DNA of 64,000 bases from Planctomycetota bacterium. GTDB lineage: Bacteria > Planctomycetota > UBA1135 > UBA2386. Below the pieces are notes generated by a model that worked only from the letters and a program-made list of their open reading frames with translations, was not told the DNA's origin and did no database searches. The DNA lies in the NCBI GenBank assembly GCA_045105235.1, contig JBGCDH010000011.1, positions 64,894 to 128,893 of the forward strand, in the 5' to 3' direction. Made by a program: the position numbers and the translations under genes. Positions within the stretch are counted from its first letter, which is position 1. The number at the start of each line of letters is the position of its first letter. Positions 9,774-53,367 of the stretch are shown piece by piece.

Positions 9774-9936
9774 CGCAACCCCCTCTTGTCTGCGCAAACC
9801 CCGACGCCGCACGAGGCTTCGGCAAGCAACGATCGCGCGGATTGCCGAGCAGAGCCCCTCAATCCGATGAGGTCGGATACCGCATCCGAAAGACACGGCT
9901 TTTCCCATCGCCCATGCTGTCGCATCATCGCCATCG

Positions 9937-32186: not shown

Positions 32187-33539
32187 CTACCGCCCGCCGT
32201 CGCCCTGCTCGTCGGGCAGCGAGAACGACGCCGGCAGCTCTTCCTTGCCGCTGCGCTGCTCCGACCACGGCGCGTCCTTGAGCGTGATCGCGCCGGTCTC
32301 GATCAGCTCCTTGCTGCGGCGCTTTTGCACAACCAGCGCGACCTCGTCGCCGCCAAGCCGTGAACTAACCAGCATCTGGAAGTGCGGCCCATTCATCACG
32401 TCGACGCCGTCGACCTTCATGATGATGTCGCCCTTGCGCAGGCCGGCTTCCTTGGCTGCACCGTCTTTGGGCGTGCCGGTGATCTTGGCGCCAGGGCCCA
32501 GGTGCGAGCTGGAAAGCTGCACGCCTAGCCAGCCGCGCTGCAGGATCTGGCCATCCTTCATCCGCTCGAGCAAGGGTTCGATGTCGGCAATGGTCGTCGC
32601 AAAGCCAATGCCCGAGTCATACCACTCCACGCCCGCGTTGCGGCCCGAGGGCGATAGCGGCACGGCAATGCCGAGCACGCGGCCGTGGACGTCGACCACC
32701 GCGCCGCCGTAGTTGGCCGGCGACGTGTAGGCATCGATCTGCAGAGCGCGGCCGAAAAGACGCTGCTTGGCGCTGACGATGCCGAGGTGAACGGTGGGCT
32801 CTTCTTGGGCAAAGGTGCGCCCGAGTGCAAAGGCCCACTGACCCACCTGAATGTCCTTGGGACGAACGAACTCAGGCACCGGCAGCCCTTCGGCCTCGAC
32901 CTTGACGAGCGCAATGCCGCGGCTGGTGTCTTCTCCGGCCCGCTCCGCATCGAACGTGCCGTGCCCCGGAACGTTGATCAGAACCGTCGTCGGGTCAAAG
33001 TTGAGCGCGAAGCGAGAGATCAGGATCCAGCCATCGCTGGTCAACACCACGCCGCTGGTCTTGCCCTGCGACTGCTTGAAGCCCCCGGCAACCAGCGGCA
33101 GCTTCTTCTTCTTTTTCTTCTTGCCGCTCTTCTTGTCGTCCTTCTTGTCACCCTTGTCCCCCTCGTCCTCCTCCTTCTTCTTCGGCTTGGGACGTGGACG
33201 GGGCTTTGGTGGCGCGGGGCCATCGCTCGGACCTTCTTTGCCCTGCCGACGGCGCGTGCCGCCGAACGTCTCCACGGTCACGACATACGGACCGGCAAGT
33301 TCCAGGGCGCGCTGTAGCACGGGCTCGAGGGCGAGGAACTCATCGACGTTGGCCGGAACGCCGCTTCTGCCTTGCGCGAAACCGGGCATCGACAAAGCTG
33401 CCGCAACTGCGAGCTGCAGCGCGTAGCGCCCCATTCGTCGAGGTGACTTCGGTGGTCGTGATAGCTGCCGAAGACCCGTCCGCCAAGCAGACGGACAAGG
33501 CTGACAAACTCGTCGCTCGTTGGCTCGACGCAGGGTCAT
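32187..33539 (-). CDS. HtrA/DegP-like trypsin-fold + PDZ protein with all three catalytic residues replaced (pseudoprotease); likely start at 33434
   Basis: Alignable to the neighbouring active HtrA. TNYHVV becomes ISRFAL, SDLAVL becomes RGIALV, and GNSGGP becomes ANYGGA. A PDZ domain (GAKITG...GLRKGDIIMKVDG) is present, plus a Lys-rich insert (KKSGKKKKKKK). Confidence 0.75.
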   Translation of the reverse strand: MTLRRANERRVCQPCPSAWRTGLRQLSRPPKSPRRMGRYALQLAVAAALSMPGFAQGRSGVPANVDEFLALEPVLQRALELAGPYVVTVETFGGTRRRQGKEGPSDGPAPPKPRPRPKPKKKEEDEGDKGDKKDDKKSGKKKKKKKLPLVAGGFKQSQGKTSGVVLTSDGWILISRFALNFDPTTVLINVPGHGTFDAERAGEDTSRGIALVKVEAEGLPVPEFVRPKDIQVGQWAFALGRTFAQEEPTVHLGIVSAKQRLFGRALQIDAYTSPANYGGAVVDVHGRVLGIAVPLSPSGRNAGVEWYDSGIGFATTIADIEPLLERMKDGQILQRGWLGVQLSSSHLGPGAKITGTPKDGAAKEAGLRKGDIIMKVDGVDVMNGPHFQMLVSSRLGGDEVALVVQKRRSKELIETGAITLKDAPWSEQRSGKEELPASFSLPDEQGDGGR

Positions 33540-34618
33540 TTCTTGGGCTCCTTGGCGAGCTTCATCTCACCGTTCATGACGCGTCGACCACGTTTCCACA
33601 TGACCTGGACTGTGTCCCCCGGCTTGTACTTGGTCAGCACGCGCCGGTATTCCTTGCACGAACGAATCGAAAAGTCGTCGATGCGCACAATGAGATCGTC
33701 GATGCGCAGGCCGAGTTCGCGTCCTGGCGACTTGCGCTTGACGCGCTCGACATAGGCCGGCGGCGAACGTCGACCAGCGTCCTCAAACAGCGTGATCCCG
33801 GTCCACACGGGTTCGTTGACGACGACCTCTTCGACACGCTTCTTGCCGTTGATGTGCTCATCGAGATAGGCAAGCAGATCGCGCGACGGAATCGCGGCGG
33901 AGATCATCGTGTTGGTCTCTTTGCTGTCCAGCAAGCGCATGTTGAGGCCAAGCCAGCGCCCGTCGAGCGAGAACAGCCCGCCGCCGTAGTGGCCGGGGTT
34001 GTTGCATGCATCGGTCAAGATGATGTCGCCATCGTACTTCACGTCCGCCATGCGGTAGCGCAGCGCGGTATTGGCACGGCCAACGACCACGCCAAACGTC
34101 GCGCTGACCTTCTCCGAGAACTCCGCCAATCGGAAGCAGTTGCCGAGACTGAGCACGAACTGACCGTTGCGGTACTTCGATTGCTCCTCGGTCGGCGGCC
34201 ACAGCGGCTGCAGTTCGCCTTCGACCTGCTCGGGGCTGATGCGCATCAGGCGAACGCCCAGCTTTTCATCAGCCGGGTAGAGAATCGCCGAATGCACCGA
34301 GCCGTCGTAGAGCACGACGCGCGTGCGGTCCTGCTGCAGCAGGATCTGGTCCAGCGTCAAAATGTGGCCGCGCTTGCTGACAACGAGGCCGGTCGCGTAG
34401 GCCGTGATCGTCGCGAGACCCGACGCCCCGTGGATCTTGACAATGCTAGGCAGCAGCCCGTCGATGGTCTGCTCGACACGTGTCCGCGGCTTGCGCTCCG
34501 CAAACGAGTAGGCCTCGCCAAAGTTCTGCGTCTGCGCGTCAAGCGACAGCGGCAGCAGTAGAGCGCTCGCAGCCACAGCCATCGCGTGGCGAGCGCGGAA
34601 GCGATCAAGACACCGCAT
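33536..34618 (-). CDS. HtrA/DegP-like trypsin-fold + PDZ protein with all three catalytic residues replaced (pseudoprotease)
   Basis: Signal peptide MRCLDRFRARHAMAVAASALLLPLSLDAQ. TLDQIL stands in for TNYHVV, LGVRLM for SDLAVL, and GHYGGG for GNSGGP. A C-terminal PDZ domain is present. The start overlaps the upstream stop (TAATG). Confidence 0.75.
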   Translation of the reverse strand: MRCLDRFRARHAMAVAASALLLPLSLDAQTQNFGEAYSFAERKPRTRVEQTIDGLLPSIVKIHGASGLATITAYATGLVVSKRGHILTLDQILLQQDRTRVVLYDGSVHSAILYPADEKLGVRLMRISPEQVEGELQPLWPPTEEQSKYRNGQFVLSLGNCFRLAEFSEKVSATFGVVVGRANTALRYRMADVKYDGDIILTDACNNPGHYGGGLFSLDGRWLGLNMRLLDSKETNTMISAAIPSRDLLAYLDEHINGKKRVEEVVVNEPVWTGITLFEDAGRRSPPAYVERVKRKSPGRELGLRIDDLIVRIDDFSIRSCKEYRRVLTKYKPGDTVQVMWKRGRRVMNGEMKLAKEPKK

Positions 34619-36477
34619 TACGAATTCCTCCGGAACCACTGTTCGTCTGGTTGGACACCTGCAGGCACGCTGCCGGTCCAACCCTCGATCAAATCTTCGT
34701 CGTCGTGAACGACGCGCAGCAGGGCGTCCCGCACATGCCACTGAACGTGGGCACGCCGAATCGGATCTCGAAAGGCGAAGCCTGCCGGCGCACCGTCGTG
34801 GAAGAACCACGCTTCGCAGTCGCCGTCGCCAGGCAGCGCAAAGCGCCAGCCCGGCTTGCCGTGAACATGCACACCGCCAATCAGCAGCGCACCGTCCAGC
34901 CGCTTCGCCAGTGCTTCGGGGGTGCGAGGCCACATCACGCAGTTTGCGGCATGCTCGCGCCGCAAGCGCTCACGTTGATCCAAGGTCAGGTCCTGCACCT
35001 CCCCCTTCGCATCGATGGCGAAGCCGCCGTCGCGGCCCTCTTCGTCGCTCAAGCGAACGAGCGCCGAACCATCCCCGGGCTCGATCCGCATCTTGTCACC
35101 AAGTGCCACCGTCACGACCACCCTGCCGTCCGGAGCCGTTCGCTCCCAGCGCATCGCCGCATCACTGCCCGTCCGTTCCAACGGACGAGCGCCCGCCTGC
35201 AGGGTCGACAGAATCTGCGCAGTCGCGATGCGGCGATCGATACGGCTGCCGAGCCTGGCGTCGGCATCCCCGCCGTCAAAGCTCGAACCCGTATCCAGGC
35301 GCCTCATCTTCACGGTGATCTGGCGAGCATCGCCAAAGCCACCGTCAGCGAGCGACGGGCGATGCCGCAGCGTGACCCAGGTATCCGCGGGCAGCACGCC
35401 GATCAGCGTTGCGAGCTGGTTGGCAGAGCGCACCTCGATACCGTTGAACGTGAGGATCTCGTCGCCGAGCCCGACGCCAGCCGTCGAAACGATTGAATCG
35501 TGGAACGTCTGCTGCACAAACACGCCGCGCTTCTTTGTCTTGCTGTCGCGCGCGGTCATGAACCACGCGCTCATGTCGAGCGTGCCGTGCTCCGCGTGCC
35601 GACCTGCAACGAGGTCGCCGAGGAAGTTGTTAATCTGGTTGGCGGCAATCGCAAAGCCAACGCCGACGTTGACCCGGCCGCGGTCGCCAATCGAGATGCG
35701 GCCGTTGATGCCGATCACCTCGCCCGCTTCATTGAAGAGTGGCCCGCCCGAATTGCCGGGGTTGACCGGCGCGTCGACCTGGATGCAGTCGGGGTAGACC
35801 AGCTTGCGGTTGCCCTGGCCCTCTTGATAGCGGTGCGTGCCAGAAACGATGCCGAAGGTCACCGTCGGCGTGAAGTCGGTCGCCAGCAAGAACGGGTTGC
35901 CCATGGCAAAGACCGTTTCTCCGACCAACACGTCATCGCTGTTGCCGAGTTCGCAGTAGGGCCACGTCTGACCGTCCACCGTCGGCAGCAGGCGCAGCAC
36001 GGCGAGGTCGCTCCCCGGATCGATGCCGAGCACAACGCCCTCGTAGAGCTTGCCGTCCGGTAGGCCGACCTTCTTGTTCTTGTAGTGCGACGCTCCGGTG
36101 GGCTGGTGCTCGAGCCGCCACTGCTGCTGCCACTCGGAAACGTAGGCCGCAACGGCCTCATCATCAGCGCCCTCGTTTTGCTTACGCCAGTTCGCCAGCG
36201 TCTCTTCGGGCACGTCGGGCGGATCCGGCAGCTTGTAGTCCTTGTCGGGGTTGCCGACGACGTGGTAGTTCGTCAGCACAAAACCACGCGGATCAAAGAC
36301 CACGCCGCTGCCGCCGCCAGGCGCATCCATCGACATGACCGAACAGACGGCCTGGGCGCAGCGATCGATCACGGCAACCCGCTGAGACTGCCGCGCAAGC
36401 ACGGCGTCCAGCGGCTCTTGCGGAACGAACGGCACCGCGAGTAGGGCGAGAAGCATCATGTAGGTAGGCGGGCGCAC
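34618..36477 (-). CDS. HtrA/DegP-family serine protease with PDZ domain and long C-terminal extension (catalytically intact)
   Basis: GSGVVFDPRGFVLTNYHVV (His), GSDLAVLRL (Asp), DAPVNPGNSGGPLFN (Ser), and PDZ (GVGLGDEILTFNG). Confidence 0.85.
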   Translation of the reverse strand: MRPPTYMMLLALLAVPFVPQEPLDAVLARQSQRVAVIDRCAQAVCSVMSMDAPGGGSGVVFDPRGFVLTNYHVVGNPDKDYKLPDPPDVPEETLANWRKQNEGADDEAVAAYVSEWQQQWRLEHQPTGASHYKNKKVGLPDGKLYEGVVLGIDPGSDLAVLRLLPTVDGQTWPYCELGNSDDVLVGETVFAMGNPFLLATDFTPTVTFGIVSGTHRYQEGQGNRKLVYPDCIQVDAPVNPGNSGGPLFNEAGEVIGINGRISIGDRGRVNVGVGFAIAANQINNFLGDLVAGRHAEHGTLDMSAWFMTARDSKTKKRGVFVQQTFHDSIVSTAGVGLGDEILTFNGIEVRSANQLATLIGVLPADTWVTLRHRPSLADGGFGDARQITVKMRRLDTGSSFDGGDADARLGSRIDRRIATAQILSTLQAGARPLERTGSDAAMRWERTAPDGRVVVTVALGDKMRIEPGDGSALVRLSDEEGRDGGFAIDAKGEVQDLTLDQRERLRREHAANCVMWPRTPEALAKRLDGALLIGGVHVHGKPGWRFALPGDGDCEAWFFHDGAPAGFAFRDPIRRAHVQWHVRDALLRVVHDDEDLIEGWTGSVPAGVQPDEQWFRRNS

Positions 36478-36558
36478 AGCCCGAACGTTGCGGTTACGGC
36501 GGCGGATACGGCGGCGGGTACGGCTGGTGCAATGACGCGAGCGATGTGCCTGCGGCCG

Positions 36559-37788
36559 CTACTGCTGGACGATGCGTGCATCGGCGAACGCACAGAAATC
36601 ACCAAGGTCGTAGTTCTTGCCAAAGTCGACCTCGATGGCGAGGGTCTGCGCTTTGTTCAGCGCCACGTGCAGCTCTTGCGGCGGCATGCCACGCGTCATC
36701 GGCTCGGACTCAAACGCCTGCTGACCGTCCACAAACACGCGGAATACCGCGTGAGCCTGCGGGCCGCCGCGATCGTCGATGCCAATCGTCGCTTCGAACA
36801 CGTCGTAGCGCCCCTCAACGGCGTAGGTCAGGCGCGTCTTGGGCACGAGGCCGATGCCCCGTTCAAACGACTGGCCAGCAAGCTGAAAGCCTGGGCCGCC
36901 TTCGGTCCGGTTCTTGTGCCACGGCCAGACTCGATCGAACGCCGGCGTTTGTTCTACTTTTGGCTCGAGCTTCGACAGCCAGACGAGCTTGTCGCTCGAG
37001 ACGTCCAGTCGATGCAGATTGCGCAACGGCACGTCGAGTTCACAGCCTTCATCGAGACGCAGCCGCAGCGACTCACCGAGGGACAGCATCTTTCCTTCTA
37101 GCTTCTCGCCCGTTGTCAGCGAGACGACCGTGCGCGGCTGCGGCTGACGATTCGGCGCGAAGCCGGTGTTGGCACCAAAGACAACGGCGGCAACGCCATC
37201 GATCTCGAACTCGTAGTCATCCCCGCGAAGTTTGAACTCCACGGCCTTGCTGGTGAGGCCTTGGATCGCCACGGACGAGCGCTGCGCCCGACCACCCTTG
37301 ACGACGTAGAGCAGGTCGTTGTTGGCCGGGGGCTTGGCCAAGTCCGTCGCGAACAAGGTCGGCCGCGGCCGCAGCAAGCCACCGTGGCGGATCGCGCGCA
37401 CGGTGCTGATTGGCAACGTGACTTCGAGGCCTGACGGTAGCCGCGCGAGCAAGACAGCGGGCTTGCCGTCGGCAGCGAGGCGCCCCTTGATCTTCTTCGC
37501 AGGCAGTTCGAGGCCCGACCGCAACCAGACGCGATCTTCGGTCTCGACGATGCGCGGCTCGACGTCATCGCGCTCAAAGCCGGCAAGCTGCGCCAGCTCA
37601 AAGGTCGTCTTGCCGCCATCGGCAGCTAGGACTTGGCAGACGCCGTCCGCGGCAACGGTCAACCTGCCGGGCAACTCGCGGCCATCGATCGTGCTCGCGG
37701 TGCCCGCGACTTGCCCAGCGAGACTGCTGGCGGCGAACGTGGCGAACAACAGACAGGACGGAAGTCGGTGGCGGCGGCGCATCTTCAC
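36559..37788 (-). CDS. Secreted protein with C-terminal NPCBM/NEW2-like carbohydrate-binding module
   Basis: Signal peptide. The C-terminus FERGIGLVPKTRLTYAVEGRYDVFEATIGIDD...VFRVFVDGQ...LAIEVDFG...GDFCAFADARIV matches the NPCBM pattern. Confidence 0.65.
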   Translation of the reverse strand: MKMRRRHRLPSCLLFATFAASSLAGQVAGTASTIDGRELPGRLTVAADGVCQVLAADGGKTTFELAQLAGFERDDVEPRIVETEDRVWLRSGLELPAKKIKGRLAADGKPAVLLARLPSGLEVTLPISTVRAIRHGGLLRPRPTLFATDLAKPPANNDLLYVVKGGRAQRSSVAIQGLTSKAVEFKLRGDDYEFEIDGVAAVVFGANTGFAPNRQPQPRTVVSLTTGEKLEGKMLSLGESLRLRLDEGCELDVPLRNLHRLDVSSDKLVWLSKLEPKVEQTPAFDRVWPWHKNRTEGGPGFQLAGQSFERGIGLVPKTRLTYAVEGRYDVFEATIGIDDRGGPQAHAVFRVFVDGQQAFESEPMTRGMPPQELHVALNKAQTLAIEVDFGKNYDLGDFCAFADARIVQQ

Positions 37789-37944
37789 TGGTGTTTGGAG
37801 CTTGGAACCGACCCAGGCGAGCGGCGGCCCTGGGCCGAATCGGCGCGGAAAACGACGGCGGCGACCCCCAGGGTCGCGTCGCCGTTGCGGACGCGGATCC
37901 TTCCGCAGCGTCTGTCGCTGCGGCTTCCGCGACGACGGTCGCAG

Positions 37945-39027: not shown

Positions 39028-39233
39028 CGCCCTTCCTCCACGTCGTTTTCCTTGCCGAGTTTCACGGCGAGGCGGCGCATCAGCTCCTTCACGCGAGCCT
39101 GCTTCTTCGAAATCTTCGCATAGTCTTCCGGCGACGCCTTTTCTTCGGCGGCCTGCGCATCGACCTTTTTGGTGGTCTTGTTCACGCGCTCTTGGAGGAA
39201 CTTCAACATCTTGAGCTCTGCCGACACGGGCAC
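39024..39233 (-). CDS. Small (69 aa) charged helical protein, hypothetical
   Basis: The ORF fits exactly between the two neighbouring genes and is translationally coupled to the next gene. No motif recognised. Confidence 0.4.
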   Translation of the reverse strand: MPVSAELKMLKFLQERVNKTTKKVDAQAAEEKASPEDYAKISKKQARVKELMRRLAVKLGKENDVEEGR

Positions 39234-39266
39234 GAGCGGCGGGGCTTTCCCGCTTCAAGTACCCGT

Positions 39267-41027: not shown

Positions 41028-41077
41028 CTCTGGGAGGGTTGGGTCGCTCCGGTCTTCTCGAAGCGGGGGCTATCGGA

Positions 41078-45960: not shown

Positions 45961-48191
45961 GCCAGCAAGGATTCAAGCAACAGGCCAACCAGCAGCAGCG
46001 AAGCCAACAGCGGCCACGCTTCGCCTTCGCCGGAGGCCGAGCCAATGCCGGTCTCGTCGCGAACGAACGTCATCAAGTCGTGCAGGTTTCCGGGATACAG
46101 GCGTTTGAATGCCGCCTCGTCGAATGAGACCAATCGGCTTTCATCGAGTGGTGCGTTGCGCGCCAAGATGCGCGGTTCCGGCACGCCATCATGGCGACGC
46201 AGTTCAAGCTCGTAGGCACCGAGGTCGCGCAGCTCACGCAGCGGCACCCGCAGCTGCAGCATGGTTGCTGCGTCGGGGTCGGCTGCGCTTGGTTCGCCTG
46301 CGCTGGGCTCAGACGCACTGCCCGCAGCGGCGACTTCGGGCAACGGCGCCTCCGCCGTGAACGTCTGCTGATCTTCGCCGTTGAGCGAACGCAGCGTCAC
46401 GTCCGGCCGGTAGAGGCCCGGGTCGAGTTCCATCTCGAACACTCCTTCCGTGAGGCGGTTCGAGCGCGCAGGGTCGTCGCGCCGCGCGCCAAACGCATGC
46501 AGCTGGTGCGCCAGCGGCACGAGCAAATAGCCGACCGGCATGTTCGACCAAAACGTGTCGGCCGTGATAGCCAACAGACCAACTTCGCCAGCCGTTCCCT
46601 GGTAGGTCCGCGTCGCAAGCAGCGGCGGCCCCTCGGCATCGTGGATGCGCGCCACGATCGACGCGTCGTGCCCTTCTGGCTCTTCGAGCGTCAGCCAGCG
46701 CTTTACCAGCAGCACATCGGCGAAAAGCATCGCGAACATATCGCCAAAGCCGCTGCAGATCGCATGGTCACGGCCCACGAGCAAACCAGGCTCGGGACGA
46801 TCGGAGTCGCCGTCGATGTCGCCGATCGGGAGCGGCAGCACCCCTTCGCCATTTTGCCAAAGCAGCTCGTTGTAGCGGCCGGCGTCGACCTGTGAACCGA
46901 GCGCGATGACCAAGCCGCCGCCGTTGGCGACAAACTCGGTCAGCCGCTTGGCGGCGCGTTCACTCGGCGCCTGCACGTTGCACCACCAGATCAGGCCAAA
47001 CGGCTCCAGGTTGGTTTCTTCGAAGCCGGTCTCGGTGACGACCTGCGCCTCCATACCCGACTCTTCGACGTCGAACGCCGTCTGCAGGAAAAAGGTCTCA
47101 CCATCGTCGACATCGGGTTCGCCATCGACCAGCAGGACCCGGCTTTTCTCGCGCACCTGCAGAGCGAGCGAGCGACGGTCGTCAAAGCGAAACGCCTCAC
47201 TCGCCTCGAGCGAAGCATCCAGGCGGTGCGCGCCAGCTTCGTGGAACGTGTAGCCCATTGGCAGCGTGGCCCGCTCGCCAGGGGCGAGCTGCGGCACATC
47301 GAGCTTCACACTGCTCTGGCCGTCGACAACCACCGACAGCGTGGTTGGCGCGGTCGGATCGAGGCCGAAGTTTTTGACGTCGACGCCAAACGAAGCGGGC
47401 ACGGAAGCGATGACGAGCCGGTCGAGCAAGCGCACGTCGGCGATGCCGATGTTGTCATGCTGGCCACCAACGGAAAGCACCGTGACGTGCTCGCGATCCT
47501 TGCGCATGGACGCCAATGCCGCCATCAGCTTGGGCCGCGCCTTGTCTTCGGGCGTGGCCCAGTCCCACGAGCGGGTGTCGCCCACGAGATAGTATTCCGT
47601 CCGCGAAGCCTTCTCGACTTCGTGGGCACGCTTGACGATCGTGCCGAGCGCGAGGCCCGCGGACGGCGCCGAATCGCTCACTGAGAGCTCTTTCAGCGCC
47701 GTTCCCGCCGTCGCGCCAAAGCCGCTGTCGATCGGGCGCGCCCAGACATCGGGCTCGCCCGCCTGCGTCGTCCGCACGATCGAGAAGAGATCGCCGGCCC
47801 GTCGCTGCGCGAGGTCGTCCGCGAGCATTCGCACCCGGTCTTGGCCACGTGAAAACAGATCTGAGCTGCCGCTCTTCTGCTGCATCGACGCACTGTCGTC
47901 GAGCACGACGACATGATGCGTCACCGAGCCGAGCAGGCCGCCACCGCCGAGCTGCGGCCGACTTACCAGAGCCACAAGCAGCAGCACGACCAACACGCGC
48001 AGCAGCAGCACCAGCCACTGCTCCATACGCATGCGCTTGCGGTTGCGCTTCATCGCGCGCAGCAAGAACGTCATCGCCGCCCACGGGACCTTTTGGAACC
48101 GCCGGCGGTTGAGGATGTGGATGATGATGGGCACGGCCGCGAGCGGCAGCGCCCACAGCAGAGCCGGGTGGAGGAACGCGAGAGCCAACAT
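45939..48191 (-). CDS. BatA-N (aerotolerance-regulator N-terminal double-TM) + VWA domain protein
   Basis: The N-terminus MLALAFLHPALLWALPLAAVPIIIHILNRRRFQKVPWAAMTFLL is the characteristic BatA_N/TIGR02226 pattern. MIDAS motif VVVLDDSASM. Confidence 0.8.
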   Translation of the reverse strand: MLALAFLHPALLWALPLAAVPIIIHILNRRRFQKVPWAAMTFLLRAMKRNRKRMRMEQWLVLLLRVLVVLLLVALVSRPQLGGGGLLGSVTHHVVVLDDSASMQQKSGSSDLFSRGQDRVRMLADDLAQRRAGDLFSIVRTTQAGEPDVWARPIDSGFGATAGTALKELSVSDSAPSAGLALGTIVKRAHEVEKASRTEYYLVGDTRSWDWATPEDKARPKLMAALASMRKDREHVTVLSVGGQHDNIGIADVRLLDRLVIASVPASFGVDVKNFGLDPTAPTTLSVVVDGQSSVKLDVPQLAPGERATLPMGYTFHEAGAHRLDASLEASEAFRFDDRRSLALQVREKSRVLLVDGEPDVDDGETFFLQTAFDVEESGMEAQVVTETGFEETNLEPFGLIWWCNVQAPSERAAKRLTEFVANGGGLVIALGSQVDAGRYNELLWQNGEGVLPLPIGDIDGDSDRPEPGLLVGRDHAICSGFGDMFAMLFADVLLVKRWLTLEEPEGHDASIVARIHDAEGPPLLATRTYQGTAGEVGLLAITADTFWSNMPVGYLLVPLAHQLHAFGARRDDPARSNRLTEGVFEMELDPGLYRPDVTLRSLNGEDQQTFTAEAPLPEVAAAGSASEPSAGEPSAADPDAATMLQLRVPLRELRDLGAYELELRRHDGVPEPRILARNAPLDESRLVSFDEAAFKRLYPGNLHDLMTFVRDETGIGSASGEGEAWPLLASLLLVGLLLESLLAWRFGRR

Positions 48192-48243
48192 CAGCAGCGC
48201 TCCGTCATCAATTCGTGTGGCAGCATCATCGGGGCAAAACCGA

Positions 48244-49419
48244 TCAACGTTGGTAGATGGGCACGAGGGAATCGGGCAGCTGCAAGATCGTCAGAGCAAC
48301 AGAGGTGCCGTAGACCGGGCCGACACCGCCGCCCTGCCAACTGCCATCCTTGCGTTGGCGCTTCTTGAGCCACGTGCAGGCACGTGCGTAGTAGTCATCC
48401 CAATCGGGGCCACCGCGCTGGTAGAGCGCCTGGGACCAGTAGAGATGGGCGTAAAAGTGGTGACCGGTGGTGTCGAGTTCGACTTTGAGTTGCGACTTGC
48501 AGAAACCAACTGCCGCGTCGACGAACGCTTGGTCGTCGTAGACGCCGGCGTTGTAAAAGACGGCAACGCCGGCCGCAGTGATCGCCGGCAAGCTCGCGGT
48601 GCCGGCCGACTCCAGCTGGTAGCGAATGCCGCCATCCGGGTTTTGGCAGCGCTTCATGTAGCTCACCGCGCGATCGATGACCCGCTTGTCGACAACGATG
48701 CCCGCCATCCGACACGCCCGCAGCGCCTGGATCTGGGTGATCGTCACGCTGCCTTCGTCGCGGCCGTCGTCGTGCTGATACCACCACCCGCCCGCTCGAT
48801 TTTGGCTGGCGGCGATGAGCTTGACCGCGCCGTCGAGAGCGGACTTCACGAGGGCCTTTTGACGACGCCCTTCTTCCATGCCATAGACCGATGCCAAGAA
48901 CATCGTGCCAAAGCCATGGCCATACATCGGACGCCCTTCGGCGCCTCCCGACACGAGGCGGCCGGTCGCACCGTCTGCTTCGCCAATCACAAACGCTGCC
49001 GCCCGCCGCACGGCGCGCCAGCGCTGTCCTCGCGTGGGCGTCGAGCCGCTGCCGAGCAGCGCCATGCCAGCAAGCGACGTCATGGCGACCGGATAGGTGC
49101 CATAGCCGCCGGCGTTTCGCCAGCTGCCGTTTTTGCCCTGACTCTGTTCCAACCACGTGAGGCCGCGAGCGATCGCAGCCCGGGTTTCCGCGTCGATCGG
49201 ATCAGCCGCCTTCCTGCTGGCAATCCTGCTGGCAATCGGGCCAGTGGCGGCGGCCCGATTTGCGGCGGTCCCAGATGCGGGCCATCCAGATGCGGACAAT
49301 CCAGCTGCGGGCCATCCAGCTACAGCCGTATCCGACTGCGCGGCAAGCAAACCGCAGAACGACGCCACGAGCCCAAAGGCCGTCGACAGCAAGCGGGATT
49401 GGCGAAGAAGGAGCGACAT
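48244..49419 (-). CDS. Secreted prenyltransferase/squalene-oxidase-repeat (alpha/alpha-toroid) protein, paralog A
   Basis: Signal peptide. Repeated Q-x2-(D/N)G(S/G)W-type motifs (EQSQGKNGSWRN, ASQNRAGGWWY, RCQNPDGGIRY, KRQRKDGSWQG). Highly similar to the 49460-50593 product. Confidence 0.7.
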   Translation of the reverse strand: MSLLLRQSRLLSTAFGLVASFCGLLAAQSDTAVAGWPAAGLSASGWPASGTAANRAAATGPIASRIASRKAADPIDAETRAAIARGLTWLEQSQGKNGSWRNAGGYGTYPVAMTSLAGMALLGSGSTPTRGQRWRAVRRAAAFVIGEADGATGRLVSGGAEGRPMYGHGFGTMFLASVYGMEEGRRQKALVKSALDGAVKLIAASQNRAGGWWYQHDDGRDEGSVTITQIQALRACRMAGIVVDKRVIDRAVSYMKRCQNPDGGIRYQLESAGTASLPAITAAGVAVFYNAGVYDDQAFVDAAVGFCKSQLKVELDTTGHHFYAHLYWSQALYQRGGPDWDDYYARACTWLKKRQRKDGSWQGGGVGPVYGTSVALTILQLPDSLVPIYQR

Positions 49420-49459
49420 GTGAAATCGTGAGCGGCAGCTGCGGGCGAGCGCGCGCGCG

Positions 49460-50593
49460 CTAGCGCTGGAAAATCGGGGCGTTGGCGTAGGGCAACTGGA
49501 GGATGGTCAGCGCGATGGCGGTGCCGTAGACCGCACCCACGCCATCGCCTTGCCAGCTTCCGTCCTTGCGCTGCTGGCGCAGGAGCCACTTCCCCATTTT
49601 GGTGTAATAGGCATCCCAGTCTTCGCCACCGCGCTGGTAGAGCGCCTGCGCCCAGTAGAGGTGCGCGTAGTAGTGGTGGCCGGTGCTGTTGACGCCCGCC
49701 TTGATGCGCTTGATGCAGTACTGCACGGCCTTGTCGACAAACGGCTGATCGTCGTAGACGCCAGCGTTGTAGAGCACCGCGACGCCGGCCGCAGTGATCG
49801 CCGGCCGCCCGTCGCCGCCAGAGTTCAGGCTGTAGCGAATGCTGCCGTCCTGGTTTTGGCAGCGCTTGATGTAGGAAACGGCTTTGTCGATCACCTTCTT
49901 GTCGACGACAATCCCAGCCATGCGGCACGCACGCAGCGCCTGGATCTGCGTCACGGTCACGCTGCCTTCGTCGCTATTGGAGTCCGGCGTGTAGATCCAA
50001 CCGCCGGCAGAAGACTGCGCCCGCCCAATCAGCTTGACCGCTTTGCCGAGCACGCGCTTCAGACGCTCCTGCTTGCGCAGGTCTTCCTCCATGCCATAGA
50101 CCGACGCGAGGTAGAGCGTGGCGAAGCCATGCCCATACATGCTGCGCCCCTCTTCCGCGGGAACCGAGATGACGCCGTTGTTGGGATCCGAGTTCTTGAG
50201 CAAGAACTCAACCGAGCGACGGACTTGGCTGTAGTAGCGCCCGCGCGTGGGCGTCGAGCCCCCGGCAATCAACGCCATGCCGGCGAGACCCGTCATCGCA
50301 GCCGGGTAGCTGCCGTATCCGCCAGAGTTGCGCCAGCTACCTTCGTTGGCCTGGTTGCGCGCCAACCACTCAAGGCCACGCTGGATGCCTTCGTGCACAT
50401 CCTTGGTCACGCCCGGCGGGTAGTTTTCCTGCGCCACAACGTCCGCACGCAGCGCACACGGAACCAGCACGGCCGCACACAGCCCAGCAAGCCATGGCGA
50501 TCGCCGGCGAGAGTGTCGCCCAGTGGAAACTCGTCCAGTGGAGATTCGTCCGGTGGAGAGGCCGCTATCGGCACGAGTAGGCAAAGTGATCAT
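49460..50593 (-). CDS. Secreted prenyltransferase/squalene-oxidase-repeat (alpha/alpha-toroid) protein, paralog B
   Basis: ARNQANEGSWRN, RAQSSAGGWIY, RCQNQDGSIRY, RQQRKDGSWQG. It is colinear with paralog A down to the shared C-terminus LTILQLP...(I/P)(Y/F)QR. The start overlaps the upstream stop as ATGA. Confidence 0.7.
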   Translation of the reverse strand: MITLPTRADSGLSTGRISTGRVSTGRHSRRRSPWLAGLCAAVLVPCALRADVVAQENYPPGVTKDVHEGIQRGLEWLARNQANEGSWRNSGGYGSYPAAMTGLAGMALIAGGSTPTRGRYYSQVRRSVEFLLKNSDPNNGVISVPAEEGRSMYGHGFATLYLASVYGMEEDLRKQERLKRVLGKAVKLIGRAQSSAGGWIYTPDSNSDEGSVTVTQIQALRACRMAGIVVDKKVIDKAVSYIKRCQNQDGSIRYSLNSGGDGRPAITAAGVAVLYNAGVYDDQPFVDKAVQYCIKRIKAGVNSTGHHYYAHLYWAQALYQRGGEDWDAYYTKMGKWLLRQQRKDGSWQGDGVGAVYGTAIALTILQLPYANAPIFQR

Positions 50594-53367
50594 CCGCGAC
50601 CCTCCATGTATTCGTACAGCATCTGTTGTTCGGTGGCATGGCGCGCCATGTCACCCGCAGTTTTGCAAAGCTCGACTCGCGAGAGATGCCAATCCAGTCG
50701 GACGGAGCGAGCCCCAAGCACGCTTTGAATCTCATCCATCGCTGCAAGAGCTGCCGGCAGATCGCCGCTGCTCGCAAGTTCGATGGCTCGTTGACGAACG
50801 AGACGCACCAAGCTCTGCGCGGCACGTCTCCGCTGATCCTCATCCGCTTCACTCGAGGCGGCGGCAGCGGCCAGAACCTTCTCCGCAGCAAGTCCATCGC
50901 TGCTGCGCGTCAGGTAGTGGGCCCGACGAACCGGGTCCTCGGCCGCACCGGCCAATGCCCCAAGCGCCTGCTTGGAGCTGTAGACTTCGACCCCGCCGGC
51001 GTAGCCGACGGCTAGCCACGGCCCGTCGACCACGAGGTTGCAGCTCCCGCCCAACGGCTCGCGCCCTTCGTCAAAGTCAGGCAGCGAAATGCGCCGCATC
51101 GGCTTGCTGTTGGCACAGTCAAAGACCAGCAGCTCGCGCTGATTGGGGAGGATCACGACATCGTCGAGAACCGCACCGCGGCCGCGACCCGACGTCTTGC
51201 GGCCGGACCAACTCGGCAACGGCTGCTGCCAGCGCAGCAGGCCACCCTCCAGCTCAATGCAGACCAGGTGGGATGTGGACGTCGCGAACAGCAGCTCGTC
51301 GTTGTGCCCGACCACCTCGTTGATCCGGCCATACGGCGCGTGGATCGTTGTCCCGTCGAGCATCCAAACGGCATCGCCGGTTGCCGCATCGATGGCCGCA
51401 ATCACGTAGCCATCGCACGGCGCAAAGATCACCAGACCATCGCGCACGATCAGGTCGGACGGCGCAAAGCCATCGATCGCAGCCTGCGCATAGGTCGCGC
51501 CACCGTTGCCGAAGCGAACGTTGAGGTTGTTGCCCGGCGACTTGCGCCGGCGCTTGCGCATCTTGTGCACCGTGTCGACCCGCTCGTAGCGGCGGATCCA
51601 CCGGAGGTCGCCGGCAAACGCATCCACCGCGGCGAGGCAGCCAGCGTTGGTCGAGCAGTAGGCGGTTCCGCCCTGCACGACAACGCGACAGCCCGGCGCC
51701 TTCCAGAACTTGGAGCCACCGCTATGTAGCGGCGTATGCCACAAGGGCTCACCGGAGCGACGATCGATGCATTCCAACGAATACGAACCGTTGCGCAATG
51801 CCGGCAGGAGCAGACTCTCACCAAAGATCGACGGCGCCGCCAAGAACGTTACGCCACGCAGCCCATCGTCGCCCTCGAGCCAGTCCTCGGACGTCCACGC
51901 CTGGCCCCAGTCGCTTTTGCGATAGGCACGCAGCTTGGAGGTCGCCAGCGGCTTCTCGTTTTGCACGGCGTTGCCTTCGTGACCGAGGATCACATAGCGA
52001 CGCTCGCGATCCTCGACCGGCCGCAGCAGCGCCTGATCGGCCGCCGCCACACGAACCCGGGGATAGCCCTCGCGGGCGAGCGGAGGCTCGTTTTCGCCAT
52101 CGCCTTGCTGAATCAGAATGCCACTCGCGGCGTCCGTCATGCTCAGCCTGAAGTGCTCCATAAACAGAGCTCGCGGCTCTCGCACACCGGATGCATTCAG
52201 CTCGCTGCTAAAGGCAACCCACGTCGCCGGCCCGTAGCGATTGGCGAACGGCATGCTGGTCCGGCCAGGACTTCCGCCGAAGAAGTGCGTGGTCCTGGAG
52301 TTGCGCTTTGCCTTGGGATCCTTGTAGGGGTTTGGCTCGGCAAAGCGATACTGCCACAGCGGCACCAGATCGCCGTCGACCAGCGTCAGCCCGGGAACTT
52401 CGCCAGCTCTCGACGAGCCCTCGATCGCGACGACGTCGCGCGAGAAGAGCTCGCTTTGCTGCAGCGACTCGACCGACTCCAGCTGACCAAGAATACGGAG
52501 CGACTCGTCTTGGTGGCTCTCGGCCAGCCCCTCAACAGCAGCTTGCGCCGCGTCCCTTTCGCCGGACAGACGCAGGCAGAGCGCGATCTTGAAGCGGCAC
52601 CACACGTCGCGCACGCCAAGTTTGCGGCGGTTGTCCGCCGGATATGTCTCAAGGAGGTCCCGATACACCTGAACGGCTGCTCGATAGCGCCCGCGATGCA
52701 TCTGCAGGTCCGCCAAGCGAAGCATCGCCCGGCCGGCCGGGAGCGTGATGAAGTAGCGGTTCGCAACCCGTTCGAGGTCGACGATCGAGCCCGTGACGAG
52801 CGCCTTGTCGAGCAGCTCCTGCGCCTGCGCCTCGTGCTGCGTGCGGTAGATCTGGACGCCGATGTCGGGAAGCTTGGCGAGCAACTCGTGGCAGAGCCGG
52901 CGAACGGGGCGGAAAAGGCGCCCGTCCTGACTGAAGACCGAATTGCGCGCATCGAGCTCCGTCGCCGCAACACCGCCAGGATCTGCCGCATCCGGATCGT
53001 TGGGCGGCGCGGCCCGGCTGCGGCCGCCATCCGGCTGACCATCCCCCGGCTGACCATCCCCCGGCTGAACTGCCCCCGCTTCATCCTCAGGACGCAGCGC
53101 CACAACCTCGACCGTGCGGCCTTCGATCACGTCCTGCAAAACGTCGATTGCCTGGCTGTATGCCGAGCGGTCCAGAAACTCCCTCGCACGATGTAAGTAT
53201 CTGTCGAGATTGGGGTTCTCAAACATCTCGACGATGACTCCGGGGTCCTCGTCGGCGTTCGCGGCCTTCTGCGGTGCGCGACCCAGCCGGAATCCGCCCT
53301 GCTGCAGAACGACCTGCTGCGACGAAGCGCTCGCGGCGATCAATGCGACGCATGCAAAGGCACGCAT
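50590..53367 (-). CDS. Secreted TPR + PQQ-like (BamB-like) beta-propeller repeat protein
   Basis: Signal peptide MRAFACVALIAASASSQQ. An N-terminal helical/TPR part is followed by repeated motifs CLAAVDAFAGDLRW, VIAAIDAATGDAVW, and LVCIELEGGLLRW. The track ORF extends to 53532. Confidence 0.7.
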   Translation of the reverse strand: MRAFACVALIAASASSQQVVLQQGGFRLGRAPQKAANADEDPGVIVEMFENPNLDRYLHRAREFLDRSAYSQAIDVLQDVIEGRTVEVVALRPEDEAGAVQPGDGQPGDGQPDGGRSRAAPPNDPDAADPGGVAATELDARNSVFSQDGRLFRPVRRLCHELLAKLPDIGVQIYRTQHEAQAQELLDKALVTGSIVDLERVANRYFITLPAGRAMLRLADLQMHRGRYRAAVQVYRDLLETYPADNRRKLGVRDVWCRFKIALCLRLSGERDAAQAAVEGLAESHQDESLRILGQLESVESLQQSELFSRDVVAIEGSSRAGEVPGLTLVDGDLVPLWQYRFAEPNPYKDPKAKRNSRTTHFFGGSPGRTSMPFANRYGPATWVAFSSELNASGVREPRALFMEHFRLSMTDAASGILIQQGDGENEPPLAREGYPRVRVAAADQALLRPVEDRERRYVILGHEGNAVQNEKPLATSKLRAYRKSDWGQAWTSEDWLEGDDGLRGVTFLAAPSIFGESLLLPALRNGSYSLECIDRRSGEPLWHTPLHSGGSKFWKAPGCRVVVQGGTAYCSTNAGCLAAVDAFAGDLRWIRRYERVDTVHKMRKRRRKSPGNNLNVRFGNGGATYAQAAIDGFAPSDLIVRDGLVIFAPCDGYVIAAIDAATGDAVWMLDGTTIHAPYGRINEVVGHNDELLFATSTSHLVCIELEGGLLRWQQPLPSWSGRKTSGRGRGAVLDDVVILPNQRELLVFDCANSKPMRRISLPDFDEGREPLGGSCNLVVDGPWLAVGYAGGVEVYSSKQALGALAGAAEDPVRRAHYLTRSSDGLAAEKVLAAAAASSEADEDQRRRAAQSLVRLVRQRAIELASSGDLPAALAAMDEIQSVLGARSVRLDWHLSRVELCKTAGDMARHATEQQMLYEYMEGRG

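Follow-up and report, generated by a model that had tools for sequence, protein, structure and literature searches.

A conserved planctomycete envelope gene cluster with a Bat-like core, no adjacent MoxR or DUF58 gene, and a probable selenoprotein

The locus, from an uncultured planctomycete, comprises some 12 cell-envelope genes that are strongly conserved as a group; it lies in a window of 64 kb (the whole stretch of DNA analysed; Table 1). The preliminary description of this DNA had listed 13 ORFs, all on the minus strand, with five start/stop overlaps, and both counts are correct: ATGA overlaps occur at 50590-50593, 43435-43438, 39024-39027 and 33536-33539, and a TAATG overlap at 34616-34620. 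The other intergenic gaps, estimated there at about 160 nt or less, measure 11-156 nt when computed from the ORF coordinates. G07 and G08 lie in a single frame interrupted by UGA, so the 13 ORFs probably represent 12 genes. Export signals and TM helices were found among the products, as had been claimed for nearly all of them, and profile searches agreed with nearly all the domains proposed earlier. HEAT/ASST-like genes lie upstream of the cluster and an ABC transporter downstream; among the neighbours are genes for a sulfatase/galactose-oxidase-like fusion and for an ASST-like propeller.

Table 1. Genes and sequence features of the cluster, with the MoxR gene found elsewhere in the window
Feature	Position in window	Strand	Evidence
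G01, exported TPR + PQQ-like beta-propeller protein, 925 aa	50590..53367	-	PQQ_2 4.8e-15, TPR_6 1.1e-5
G02, exported alpha/alpha-toroid repeat protein	49460..50593	-	SQHop_cyclase_C 2.3e-10, Prenyltrans 2.9e-9, TED_complement 6.6e-5
G03, second toroid paralogue, variable member	48244..49419	-	SQHop_cyclase/Prenyltrans-type repeats
G04, BatA-type inner-membrane protein	45939..48191	-	BatA_N 7e-17, TIGR02226 1.3e-20, CARDB 3.6e-5
G05, BatB-like membrane protein, 830 aa	43435..45927	-	called start from P0121; family-level matches
G06, membrane-anchored protein, 786 aa	41078..43438	-	large family without Pfam model
G07+G08, exported coiled-coil protein, probable single selenoprotein of 667 aa	39024..41027	-	in-frame UGA
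Two in-frame UGA codons, candidate Sec codons	39269-39267 and 39257-39255 (within 39255..39269)	-	direct sequence reading
SECIS-like hairpin, starting right after the first UGA	39222..39268	-	-24.9 kcal/mol, z = -3.9
G09, exported protein, weak TPR similarity, charged C-terminal tail	37945..39027	-	TPR_16 1.7e-3
G10, exported protein, C-terminal NPCBM carbohydrate-binding module	36559..37788	-	NPCBM 2.7e-26
G11, predicted active HtrA-type serine protease, long C-terminal extension	34618..36477	-	Trypsin_2 2.1e-31
G12, pseudo-HtrA + PDZ (His->Gln, Ser->Tyr)	33536..34618	-	Trypsin_2 2.3e-14, PDZ_2 2.5e-9
G13, pseudo-HtrA + PDZ (His->Phe, Ser->Tyr)	32187..33539	-	Trypsin_2 9.4e-16, PDZ 9.6e-9
Orphan MoxR (MRP-type AAA+)	8428..9432	+	AAA_3 4e-63

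The Bat-like core proposed earlier is supported by the BatA_N and TIGR02226 matches of G04. This protein carries an N-terminal double-TM segment, a VWA domain (DxSxS at D98-S102), a CARDB domain, a GATase1-like domain and a C-terminal TM segment (hydrophobic helices 9-27, 59-77 and 725-743). G05 has two N-terminal TM segments, a VWA domain (DTSQS), a beta-sandwich, a GATase1-like (ThuA-like) domain, a second beta-sandwich and a C-terminal TM segment; in its AlphaFold2 model (pLDDT 76), alpha/beta blocks alternate with beta-sandwich blocks, and the chain ends in a helix at 806-829. In both proteins the DxSxS motif directly follows the second TM helix. The VWA and GATase-like assignments are weak in the window proteins themselves but hold at the family level: VWA_2 is matched by 15 of 17 G04 orthologues (best 1.9e-7) and Glyco_hydro_42M or ThuA by 6-7 (Glyco_hydro_42M by 7), while among 20 G05 orthologues 16 match VWA_2, 15 VWA, 16 DUF7408, 6 BatD and 5 ThuA. 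BB0173, another BatA-type protein, is an inner-membrane protein with a periplasmic VWA domain (PMC5700661).

G06, previously described as a 2-TM protein, has three hydrophobic helices, some four Ig/MG-like beta-sandwiches and, at the C-terminus, a helical bundle (AlphaFold2 pLDDT 90). Neither 15 orthologues nor 10 distant members matched any Pfam or NCBIfam profile; the family comprises 7,258 representative clusters (E<=1e-3). DUF4175, suggested for this protein, gave no match. Foldseek retrieved only generic Ig/MG arrays, e.g. complement C3, with TM-scores of 0.1-0.2.

The accessory products include the PQQ/TPR propeller, the two alpha/alpha-toroid paralogues and the NPCBM protein recognised earlier, all in agreement with the profile matches. 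G01, whose length is counted from the ATG at 53367 (the longest ORF extends to 53532), begins with a signal-peptide-like segment (MRAFACVALIAASASS), shows weak similarity to BamB and BamD and is present in 36/36 loci with sufficient upstream flank. At 60-84% identity, G02 is better conserved than any other gene of the cluster. It was rejected as a squalene cyclase (44 bits against a cut-off of 322 bits, no DxDD motif). G03 is 60% identical to G02 over 339 aa, with the repeats scoring about 1e-10 in both, and a second toroid gene exists in only 11 of 42 loci. G09 also has a signal-peptide-like N-terminus and its gene occurs in 44/44 loci. The HtrA trio with two dead members is borne out by alignment of the catalytic residues. 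H72/D157/S243 of G11 are invariant in 43/43 sequences. G12, aligned to DegQ 4ynn, and its family (39 sequences) have His replaced by Gln and Ser by Tyr, Phe, Gln or Glu, and G13 has Phe and Tyr at these sites in 38/38 sequences. Beyond the close relatives, the triad of G11, an inactive G12 counterpart and the Phe/Tyr pair of G13 all recur in loci L066 and L071. The pattern of one active and two inactive HtrA is common to all lineages, and the alignments indicate that both pseudo-HtrAs are anciently and consistently inactive.

The junction of G07 and G08 contains two in-frame UGA codons (...KEGGG-U-TGT-U-SGKAPPLVPVSAELK...). G07 ends with TGA and G08 follows in frame in 40/40 loci, and the UGA is kept, in frame, in all 41 distinct junction sequences examined. 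The spacers measure 33, 30, 24 or 18 nt, differing only by multiples of 3, and are conserved as protein: codons right after the UGA vary synonymously (ACG/ACT, GGC/GGT/GGG, CCA/CCT/CCC), and no ATG, GTG or TTG precedes the conserved PPLVPVSAELK in 37 of 40 loci. A Cys or a second UGA lies at most 6 residues from the UGA in every junction sequence; neither G07 nor G08 has a further Cys beyond the junction. Elsewhere in the cluster TGA remains a true stop, as in the ATGA overlaps. Distant homologues are one unbroken ORF, and the comparison points to this as the ancestral state. The stability of the SECIS-like hairpin was matched by 0/200 shuffles, and a hairpin in the same register is found in 37 loci (91% paired; sliding the register lowers this to 35-60%), and two of its pairs show compensatory changes. 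G07-G08 is thus probably a new exported selenoprotein. It is unlikely that the UGA is instead a true stop, with re-initiation yielding G08 as a separate 69-aa protein and with the hairpin serving coupling or attenuation instead of acting as a SECIS. This would agree with the splitting of G07/G08 by gene callers in every database record seen, with the lack of any orthologue having Cys for Sec at the UGA position (distant homologues have neither residue there), with a hairpin that has no match in Rfam and whose loop in the window is AAAGC, lacking the GGUC of most other loci, and with a second UGA only 6 nt 5' of that loop; Sec machinery was not observed. However, the invariably in-frame TGA with its spacers in multiples of 3, the synonymous variation, the missing start codons, the neighbouring Cys or UGA and the uninterrupted ancestral ORF argue against it.

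The gene order of the cluster recurs in about 60 species-level Planctomycetota genomes, with 32-84% identity, falling to 32-50%. The informative loci preserve it in 36/36, 44/44 and 36/40 cases, which is not due to chance. Homologues in related genomes are clearly not scattered; scattering is what the preliminary description had considered fatal to its reading. None of these genomes has a MoxR gene within 10 kb of the cluster. In close relatives synteny extends equally to the flanking ABC-transporter and HEAT/ASST genes, so that part of the conservation is simply regional. The cluster is modular: the HtrA trio is absent from 3 of 40 close loci. Opposite-strand genes are inserted within it at L070, so the genes do not have to make up a single operon or a single complex.

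Five much more distant Planctomycetota loci (L066, L067, L068, L071 and L072) carry most of the same accessory modules, which had been taken for an unusual combination around a MoxR-less core. The extended form of the Bat cluster is found in two Planctomycetota classes or lineages. L066-L068 are collinear over the PQQ propeller, toroid, BatA, VWA, G06 family, coiled-coil, TPR and NPCBM genes; at 25-49% identity, the closer loci described above are collinear with L066, which reads toroid-MoxR-DUF58-BatA-VWA-G06h-G07h-G09h-NPCBM-HtrAx3. L071 and the Phycisphaeraceae locus L072 have the part of the core that starts with BatA, slightly rearranged, with the propeller after BatA and no toroid shown. 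G09 homologues occur in L065, L066, L071 and L072, and an NPCBM gene occupies the position of G10 in L065-L068, L071 and L072. HtrA genes are present in three of the five: L066 and L071 each have a trio, L072 has two. L067 and L068 have a thioredoxin-TPR gene 3' of NPCBM, in keeping with a redox theme. In L066, L067 and L068 (3/5), MoxR and DUF58 lie between toroid and BatA, the slot held by G03 in the window, and a fourth locus, L071, begins with DUF58 at its edge.

The window cluster indeed has neither gene, as claimed, and tblastn with a true DUF58 query found nothing in the 64 kb. The single MoxR reported in the window is real. It is 47-49% identical to the in-cluster MoxR of L066-L068, a level short of establishing orthology, and lies in a housekeeping context (PALP-MoxR-CyaY, no DUF58 following) that is shared with the relative L069, where it lies 172 kb from the cluster. 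This orphan is outside the cluster and possibly a trans-acting partner. As distant clusters combine MoxR and DUF58 with the same accessory genes, the absence reflects lineage-specific loss or relocation and not a different kind of system; the window therefore carries a derived form, devoid of the ATPase, of the extended Bat/MoxR-VWA cluster that occurs phylum-wide. This form shares ancestry with the Bat / MoxR-VWA "aerotolerance" clusters but lacks their adjacent ATPase genes.

We consider it fairly probable that these genes form one conserved, extended envelope cluster, homologous to the aerotolerance-type MoxR-DUF58-BatA/VWA clusters and with a likely role in keeping the envelope intact or in withstanding oxidative or other stress. 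None of the non-core genes could be assigned to an unrelated, well-characterised pathway. Mutants of the Rhizobium MoxR-DUF58-BatA-type operon RL3499-RL3502 have envelope and morphology defects, according to a title cited in PMC5118466.

Alternatively, several independent units (propeller and toroid, Bat core, G06-to-NPCBM, HtrA trio) might be adjacent by inheritance in one lineage. We find this improbable, although the modules do occur apart (G06 alone in L064, only the G06-to-NPCBM half in L065, HtrA-less loci L001, L009, L011, L067 and L068), the insertions in L070 and the equally syntenic flanks fit it, and promoters could lie in the gaps of 81 and 156 nt. However, most of the full set persists at only 25-49% identity in other lineages, a different class among them (L066, L071, L072), where the flanking genes are not conserved, and start/stop overlaps cross module borders (G08/G09 and G11/G12/G13). 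There is still less to recommend a glycan-directed surface system (polysaccharide capture, holdfast or cell-wall remodelling), in which NPCBM, toroids and GATase1-like/ThuA-like domains would act on carbohydrate and the VWA proteins as adhesins. The strong NPCBM module, weak matches of ThuA, Glyco_hydro_42M and ABC_transp_aux type and the sulfatase-fusion and ASST-like neighbours are consistent with it, but profile searches found a glycoside hydrolase, lyase or transferase catalytic domain in 0/13 products, the sulfatase neighbour is conserved in none of the loci compared, and the VWA proteins, being anchored at both ends in the inner membrane, are not surface-exposed. An alpha-2-macroglobulin-like protease trap or complement-like periplasmic defence (MG-like G05/G06, TED-like toroids G02/G03 and HtrA) is very unlikely: the weak TED_complement match of G02, weak MG2 matches in the G05 homologues of L067, L068 and L071 and the complement C3/C5 MG arrays and E. 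coli alpha-2-macroglobulin that head the G06 Foldseek matches are offset by TM-scores indicating only generic Ig-like arrays, the absence of the CGEQ thioester motif from G02, the lack of an identifiable bait region and a toroid that fits terpene-cyclase repeats at least as well.

For the extended envelope cluster we infer a function in envelope maintenance, or in redox or stress tolerance. Helices at both ends would fix G04 and G05 in the inner membrane, with their VWA (metal-ion-dependent adhesion site, MIDAS), beta-sandwich and GATase1-like domains exposed to the periplasm, and G06 would form a membrane-anchored stalk of Ig-like domains. Who binds whom within the cluster we purely infer: G07-G08, a very acidic exported coiled-coil protein, probably serves together with the TPR-like G09 as MIDAS ligand or scaffold, and G01, G02/G03 and the NPCBM lectin G10 may tether or recognise protein or glycan partners. 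G11-G13 could build a DegP/DegQ-like oligomer, with one subunit type active and the other two permanently inactive, that processes or quality-controls the assembly. In the distant relatives, assembly or remodelling of the complex is presumably the task of the cluster-encoded cytoplasmic MoxR ATPase and DUF58; in the window lineage this pair would have been lost from the locus, with only a stand-alone MoxR kept elsewhere, and a Sec-Cys or Sec-Sec redox pair would have arisen on a Gly-rich linker of the coiled-coil subunit. The role suggested earlier (extracytoplasmic assembly, quality control or remodelling) is plausible, but misses this probable selenocysteine redox centre of G07-G08.

The 13 envelope ORFs of the window (G01 to G13 in order of transcription) form a single minus-strand run in DNA of 64% G+C (Table). 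Their description was correct, far beyond what chance could produce: the five overlaps of start and stop codons were all found exactly in place, and the other gaps, estimated at about 160 nt or less, measure 11 to 156 nt. Nearly all domain calls were confirmed by Pfam and NCBIfam, the exceptions being the VWA and GATase-like calls, which are weak in the window proteins, and DUF4175, which failed. A promoter and terminator scan found no minus-strand intergenic terminator and no credible promoter, a result uninformative either way for this phylum. The preliminary description, which saw here an unfamiliar envelope machine built on a Bat-like core, was partly right: the comparisons indicate that this is the Bat/MoxR-VWA cluster in an extended Planctomycetota version, from which the neighbouring ATPase pair has been lost. 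What the cluster contains, and that it is homologous to Bat/MoxR-VWA clusters, is established at the level of sequence. A literature search found no description of the extended Planctomycetota cluster. A role in anti-phage defence was rejected because PADLOC gave only matches due to coiled-coil bias and a generic trypsin.

Table. Positions of the features discussed (window coordinates unless a related locus is named)
Feature	Positions	Strand	Content
ORF run	32187-53532	-	high third-position G+C
G01		-	PQQ_2 + TPR (Pfam/NCBIfam)
G02	49460-50593	-	terpene-cyclase/prenyltransferase-type toroid repeats, far under full-length cut-offs; 60% identical to G03
G03		-	toroid repeats as in G02, far under full-length cut-offs
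G04		-	BatA_N (TIGR02226) + CARDB
G06	41078-43438	-	membrane protein
G07-G08	39024-41027	-	coiled-coil gene, probably read as one
Tandem repeats in G07	40130-40210	-	five GKPSEA/D hexapeptides in an Ala/Lys/Glu-rich low-complexity stretch
First TGA between G07 and G08	39267-39269	-	candidate Sec codon
Second TGA between G07 and G08	39255-39257	-	candidate Sec codon
G08	39024-39233	-	thirteenth ORF; 69-codon frame between coiled-coil gene and next gene
G10		-	NPCBM
G11		-	Trypsin_2
G12, G13		-	Trypsin_2 + PDZ
Orphan MoxR	8428-9432	+	AAA_3
PALP-MoxR-CyaY	7319-10269	+	MoxR start 4 nt inside end of PALP (cysteine-synthase-like) gene; frataxin/CyaY next
Orphan MoxR gene order in L069	9048-11747		MoCF-HhH_GPD-SDR-TPR-PALP-MoxR-CyaY-kinase, as in window; 7.2-Mb chromosome of a relative
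Insertions in L070	12334-14874 and 17351-18487	opposite to cluster	GDYXXLXY/DUF4401/DUF2157 and GDSL lipase
Gene after NPCBM in L067	17644-18738		thioredoxin/DsbH-like + TPR
Gene after NPCBM in L068	17281-18363		thioredoxin/DsbH-like + TPR
Divergent gene adjoining G01	53680-56034	+	784 aa; HEAT repeats + arylsulfotransferase-like beta-propeller
Fusion gene	56227-59190	+	987 aa; sulfatase + glyoxal/galactose-oxidase-like propeller + E-set
Channel gene	26847-27968	-	SBP_bac_3 + Lig_chan + Ion_trans_2

G04 and G05 constitute the probable BatA/VWA core. The BatA_N double-TM N-terminus of G04 scores 62 bits with the BatA model (cut-off 25.9) and 73.5 bits with TIGR02226 (cut-off 23), and is matched in all 17 G04 orthologues. 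In the two window proteins VWA_2 lies under the Pfam cut-offs (E = 0.049 for G04 and 0.005 for G05), and the VWA and GATase-like calls became clearer on scanning orthologues. Among the 17 of G04, VWA_2 was matched by 15 (best E 1.9e-7), Glyco_hydro_42M by 7 and ThuA by 6; among 20 of G05, VWA models were matched by 15-16 (best E 1.6e-4), DUF7408 by 16, BatD by 6 and ThuA by 5. Both proteins carry a DxSxS motif a few residues past the second TM helix as well as a C-terminal TM helix, and a profile comparison of one with the other finds only the TM2-MIDAS segment in common (E = 4.8e-4). PDB sequence searches with their VWA parts gave nothing useful. The AlphaFold2 model of G05 (pLDDT 76) runs from an alpha/beta block (residues 87-275) through a sandwich, a second alpha/beta domain and a second sandwich to the TM helix. 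In G04 and G05 the loop that links the two N-terminal helices is basic, as is the C-terminal tail, which predicts a periplasmic position for their large domains. This agrees with BB0173, a BatA-type protein whose topology was determined experimentally and whose VWA domain is periplasmic (PMC5700661).

Conservation of the cluster was followed from G06, a search with which returned about 170 close relatives, every one from uncultured Planctomycetota. With each GTDB species represented by a single genome, a scan yielded 61 loci, on which all window proteins were mapped by tblastn. Where the flank was sufficient, G01, G02, G04 and G05 are present in 36/36 loci, G07, G09 and G10 in 44/44, the HtrA trio (G11 to G13) in 36 of 40 (it is absent in L001, L009 and L011) and a second toroid gene in 11 of 42. 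The gene order recurs in related genomes, order and strand being the same barring two locus-end artefacts; the lowest identities, 32-50%, are those of L061. In close loci synteny extends to a divergent HEAT/ASST-like gene on the upstream side and to ABC-transporter genes on the downstream side, and the signal is therefore partly regional conservation. The cluster might accordingly be no single system but several independent modules kept adjacent by descent, a reading that we regard as unlikely. Next to this flanking synteny stand two further loci in which the set is incomplete, L065 having only the half from G06 to NPCBM and L064 only G06; on the other side stand distant loci in which most of the set recurs.

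These loci came from the genomic context of eight further G06 family members. L066 is collinear with the window at 25-49% identity and reads toroid-MoxR-DUF58-BatA-VWA-G06h-G07h-G09h-NPCBM-HtrAx3, where h marks a homologue. L067 and L068, on contigs of 7.9 and 9.2 Mb, share the order PQQ-x-toroid-MoxR-DUF58-BatA-VWA-G06h-G07h-G09h-NPCBM, then a thioredoxin-TPR gene in the slot held elsewhere by the HtrA trio. L071 has DUF58-BatA-PQQ-VWA-G06h-G07h-G09h-NPCBM-HtrAx3 and L072, from a Phycisphaeraceae MAG, BatA-PQQ-VWA-G06h-G07h-TPR-NPCBM-HtrAx2. The accessory modules had been called unusual; in the distant loci they appear instead as integral and ancient companions of the MoxR-DUF58-BatA cluster in Planctomycetota. 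The same comparison indicates that the system is modular and that MoxR-DUF58, which L066-L068 have between toroid and BatA, has been lost from that position in the window lineage. L070, nearer to the window than the loci above, has neither MoxR nor DUF58 and contains opposite-strand genes inserted within the cluster, which is therefore not necessarily transcribed as one unit. The four-gene core proves in Planctomycetota to be no more than a portion of a conserved group of about 12 envelope genes, of which a natural variant works without the adjacent ATPase pair. To our knowledge MoxR-DUF58-BatA is among the most widespread bacterial clusters without a known mechanism, and candidate partners or substrates of the VWA proteins can now be listed: the coiled-coil protein, the TPR protein, the NPCBM lectin and the HtrA trio.

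The absence of MoxR and DUF58 from the window cluster holds: no MoxR lies within 10 kb of the cluster in the window or in any of 62 related loci, no scanned product of the window has a Pfam match to DUF58 (PF01882), and a tblastn search of the whole 64 kb with DUF58 of L066 reached no better than E = 4.5. L066-L068, unlike the window, encode an MRP-type MoxR (AAA_3) in the cluster. The one MoxR reported in the window is indeed an AAA_3 protein and lies 32 kb from G06, in a PALP-MoxR-CyaY context with no DUF58 after it. It shares 47-51% identity with the MoxRs encoded inside clusters, compared with 58-61% among the latter. The same surroundings are kept in a relative, about 172 kb from its cluster. 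A MoxR tied to PLP and Fe-S-related genes without a DUF58 or VWA partner is odd in itself.

Comparison with the Bat or MoxR(MRP)-DUF58-VWA systems (B. fragilis batA-E, Leptospira bat and Borrelia bb0170-bb0176) shows the same succession of a BatA_N double-TM protein and a second membrane protein, probably of VWA type, TPR-containing partners and an envelope location, and in L066-L068 also MoxR and DUF58 directly upstream of BatA. However, the window lineage has neither of these last two in the cluster. With respect to BatC (TPR), BatD (PF13584) and BatE (TPR+SH3), the cluster has no separate BatD or SH3 protein; BatD similarity occurs only inside 6/20 G05 orthologues and TPR similarity is weak (G01 and G09). 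G04 (750 aa) and G05 (830 aa) are far larger than their Bat counterparts, with CARDB, GATase1-like domains and a C-terminal anchor, and the core is joined by 7-8 more conserved genes (propeller, toroid, G06 family, coiled coil, TPR, NPCBM and HtrAx3). RL3499-RL3502 of Rhizobium leguminosarum encode MoxR, DUF58, a BatA_N-type membrane protein and a large membrane protein, the last of which we take to be DUF4175/TIGR02302. The likeness is that a large membrane protein, anchored at its N-terminus, comes after a BatA_N protein, but there are about 12 genes here rather than four, MoxR and DUF58 are lacking, and G06 matches neither DUF4175 nor any NCBIfam model. Aerotolerance or stress phenotypes are known for Bat genes in other phyla. 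These and the envelope and morphology defects on mutation of RL3499-RL3502, as given in a title cited in PMC5118466, are the only functional leads, all from other phyla.

The toroid proteins G02 and G03 precede the core. G02 was considered as a squalene-hopene cyclase and rejected, since it reaches 44 bits against a cut-off of 322.7 for TIGR01787, has few repeat units and lacks DxDD; it has the toroid repeat fold only. Its N-terminus (...GRHSRRRSPWLAGLCAAVLVPCALRA) resembles a twin-arginine (Tat) rather than a Sec signal, which would imply that the toroid protein is exported folded. Together with the G01 propeller and the NPCBM protein G10, the toroids might act as protein- or glycan-recognition modules. 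That the whole would be a glycan-directed surface system, which NPCBM would suit, is improbable.

G06 belongs to a large family, an exhaustive profile search giving 7,258 representative clusters at E<=1e-3 and 1,118 at 1e-30. Its members (P0241-P0390) are membrane proteins of roughly 700-800 aa. No Pfam or NCBIfam model covers the family members tested, with no NCBIfam match at all. An exact look-up found neither G06 nor G04 among recorded proteins. The proposed DUF4175 (PF13779) was absent from 15 orthologues with a threshold of E<=1 and from 10 distant members with one of E<=0.01, and the idea fails because no tested member matches any Pfam family; the name DUF4175 is carried by one NCBI record (P0093), a protein that itself fails the Pfam scan. 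The AlphaFold2 model (pLDDT 90) begins with helices, continues through about four beta-sandwich domains and closes with a helical bundle at the C-terminus. Three hydrophobic helices (at about 45-65, 75-93 and 179-197) and a very basic N-terminus suggest a mostly periplasmic protein with a small cytoplasmic helical insert. Whole-model Foldseek searches with G05 and G06 returned generic Ig/MG (complement C3) or glycosidase-accessory sandwiches at TM-scores of 0.1-0.2, uninformative on function, and an alpha-2-macroglobulin-like trap, to which the MG hits might point, is very improbable.

The HtrA trio was described as having two dead members, and the active sites bear this out. The His-Asp-Ser triad of G11 (H72, D157 and S243) is invariant in 43 sequences and is found also in L066 and L071. 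In G12 Gln replaces His, and Tyr, Phe, Gln or Glu replaces Ser; in G13 Phe replaces His and Tyr replaces Ser in 38/38 sequences. G12 and G13 are thus predicted pseudo-proteases with an HtrA fold and PDZ. In L066 and L071 Thr or Val stands in place of His and Ala in place of Ser in the second HtrA, and the third carries Phe and Tyr; since the pattern is kept there, the combination of an active member with two inactive ones appears old and under selection. The best PDB relatives of the three proteins are DegQ, DegP, DegS and HTRA1, in line with their Trypsin_2 and PDZ matches. The bacterial HtrAs known to us are homo-oligomers of active subunits, whereas here one active protein is accompanied by two paralogues without His and Ser, fixed across lineages 24-43% identical. 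Conserved over deep divergence, the trio offers a clear natural example of an HtrA assembly with pseudo-protease subunits.

G07 and G08 share one reading frame, with two TGA codons between them in the window. In 40/40 loci with both ORFs the stop of G07 is TGA and G08 follows in frame after a spacer of 33, 30, 24 or 18 nt, and the in-frame TGA is conserved in all 41 distinct junction sequences. The spacer is kept as protein, T-[GS]-x-G-G-G-G-Q-P-P-L-V-P-V-S-A-E-L-K, with synonymous third-position changes, and 37/40 distinct sequences have no ATG, GTG or TTG from the UGA to the conserved PLVP. A Cys or a second UGA lies within 6 residues of the UGA in every sequence, the patterns being CGH-U, GC-U, U-TSC and U-TGC, with U-TGT-U in the window clade (U, candidate Sec); G07 and G08 contain no other cysteines. 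L070 also has TGA-joined ORFs, with a Cys six residues before the UGA. In the distant homologues of L065-L068 both parts form one unbroken ORF, with a Gly/Pro/Gln linker without Cys or stop.

A hairpin lies about 11 nt past the UGA, always in the same register; it is 91% paired, whereas sliding lowers this to 35-60%, and two of its pairs show compensatory change. Its loop is GGUCA (or GUC) in most loci, at nt 22-26 from the U of UGA, presumably where G23/U24 lie in the fdhF SECIS of E. coli. The window hairpin reaches -24.9 kcal/mol (z = -3.9) with a loop AAAGC, and Gly (GGN) and Pro (CCN) codons alone could form such a stem. At the ATGA overlaps of the cluster TGA still serves as an ordinary stop. 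No orthologue has Cys in the Sec column: members of the lineage all have UGA, and only the partner alternates between Cys and a second UGA. An Rfam search of the UGA region gave no match, neither the 64-kb window nor about 1.5 Mb of related loci yielded a tRNA-Sec, and a scan of the window for further ORF pairs joined by one UGA gave nothing convincing. Selenocysteine machinery has been reported for some Planctomycetes (PMC4807772).

On this evidence it is likely that the UGA is decoded as Sec, and G07-G08 is probably one new exported selenoprotein split in two by gene callers, as it is in every database record seen. An in-frame UGA with a nearby Cys or Sec partner and a downstream hairpin recall bacterial selenoproteins, for which CxxU/UxxC motifs, the E. 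coli fdhF-type SECIS, the GCUG tail of thioredoxin reductase and the UxxU diselenide of SelL are known. Unlike in these, the host is an exported, otherwise Cys-free coiled coil without a thioredoxin fold, there is no Cys orthologue at the Sec position, and the window clade combines two UGAs with a non-canonical loop. If the UGA is Sec, G07-G08 would found a new family, exported, without a thioredoxin fold and with two Sec in some clades, and the "aerotolerance" phenotype of Bat would be tied to actual redox chemistry. The thioredoxin-TPR gene of L067 and L068 is a second hint of a redox theme. G07 varies from 526 to 748 aa among homologues; the window protein contains a tandem hexapeptide repeat (Table).

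The candidate selenoprotein and the fixed pseudo-HtrA pair are the most interesting content of the cluster. They enter the model that we put forward tentatively, an undescribed phylum-wide periplasmic machine with a fixed HtrA hetero-oligomer of one active and two inactive members and a coiled-coil protein of a new selenoprotein family, bearing either Sec-Sec (U-x3-U, a possible diselenide) or Cys-Sec on a flexible linker. The assembly would be periplasmic and anchored in the inner membrane, with G06 as a stalk. The extremely Asp/Glu-rich G07-G08, and G09, would be the acidic ligands of putative MIDAS sites in G04 and G05, and the HtrA trio would serve as a dedicated protease-chaperone. In relatives, cytoplasmic MoxR-DUF58 may drive assembly or remodelling via cytoplasmic loops; in the window lineage this module would have left the locus, and a redox pair based on Sec would have arisen. 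If true, a Bat-type "aerotolerance" system would have a direct redox centre in a lineage without in-cluster MoxR-DUF58.

Three further genes of the window were observed on either side of the cluster. The 987-aa fusion gene is conserved beside the cluster in none of the related loci. The divergent gene adjoining G01 keeps its position in most close loci and L070, not in the distant clusters, and may be co-regulated with the cluster from the shared 150-300-nt intergenic region. The third gene encodes a GluR0-like channel of the prokaryotic ionotropic-glutamate-receptor type.
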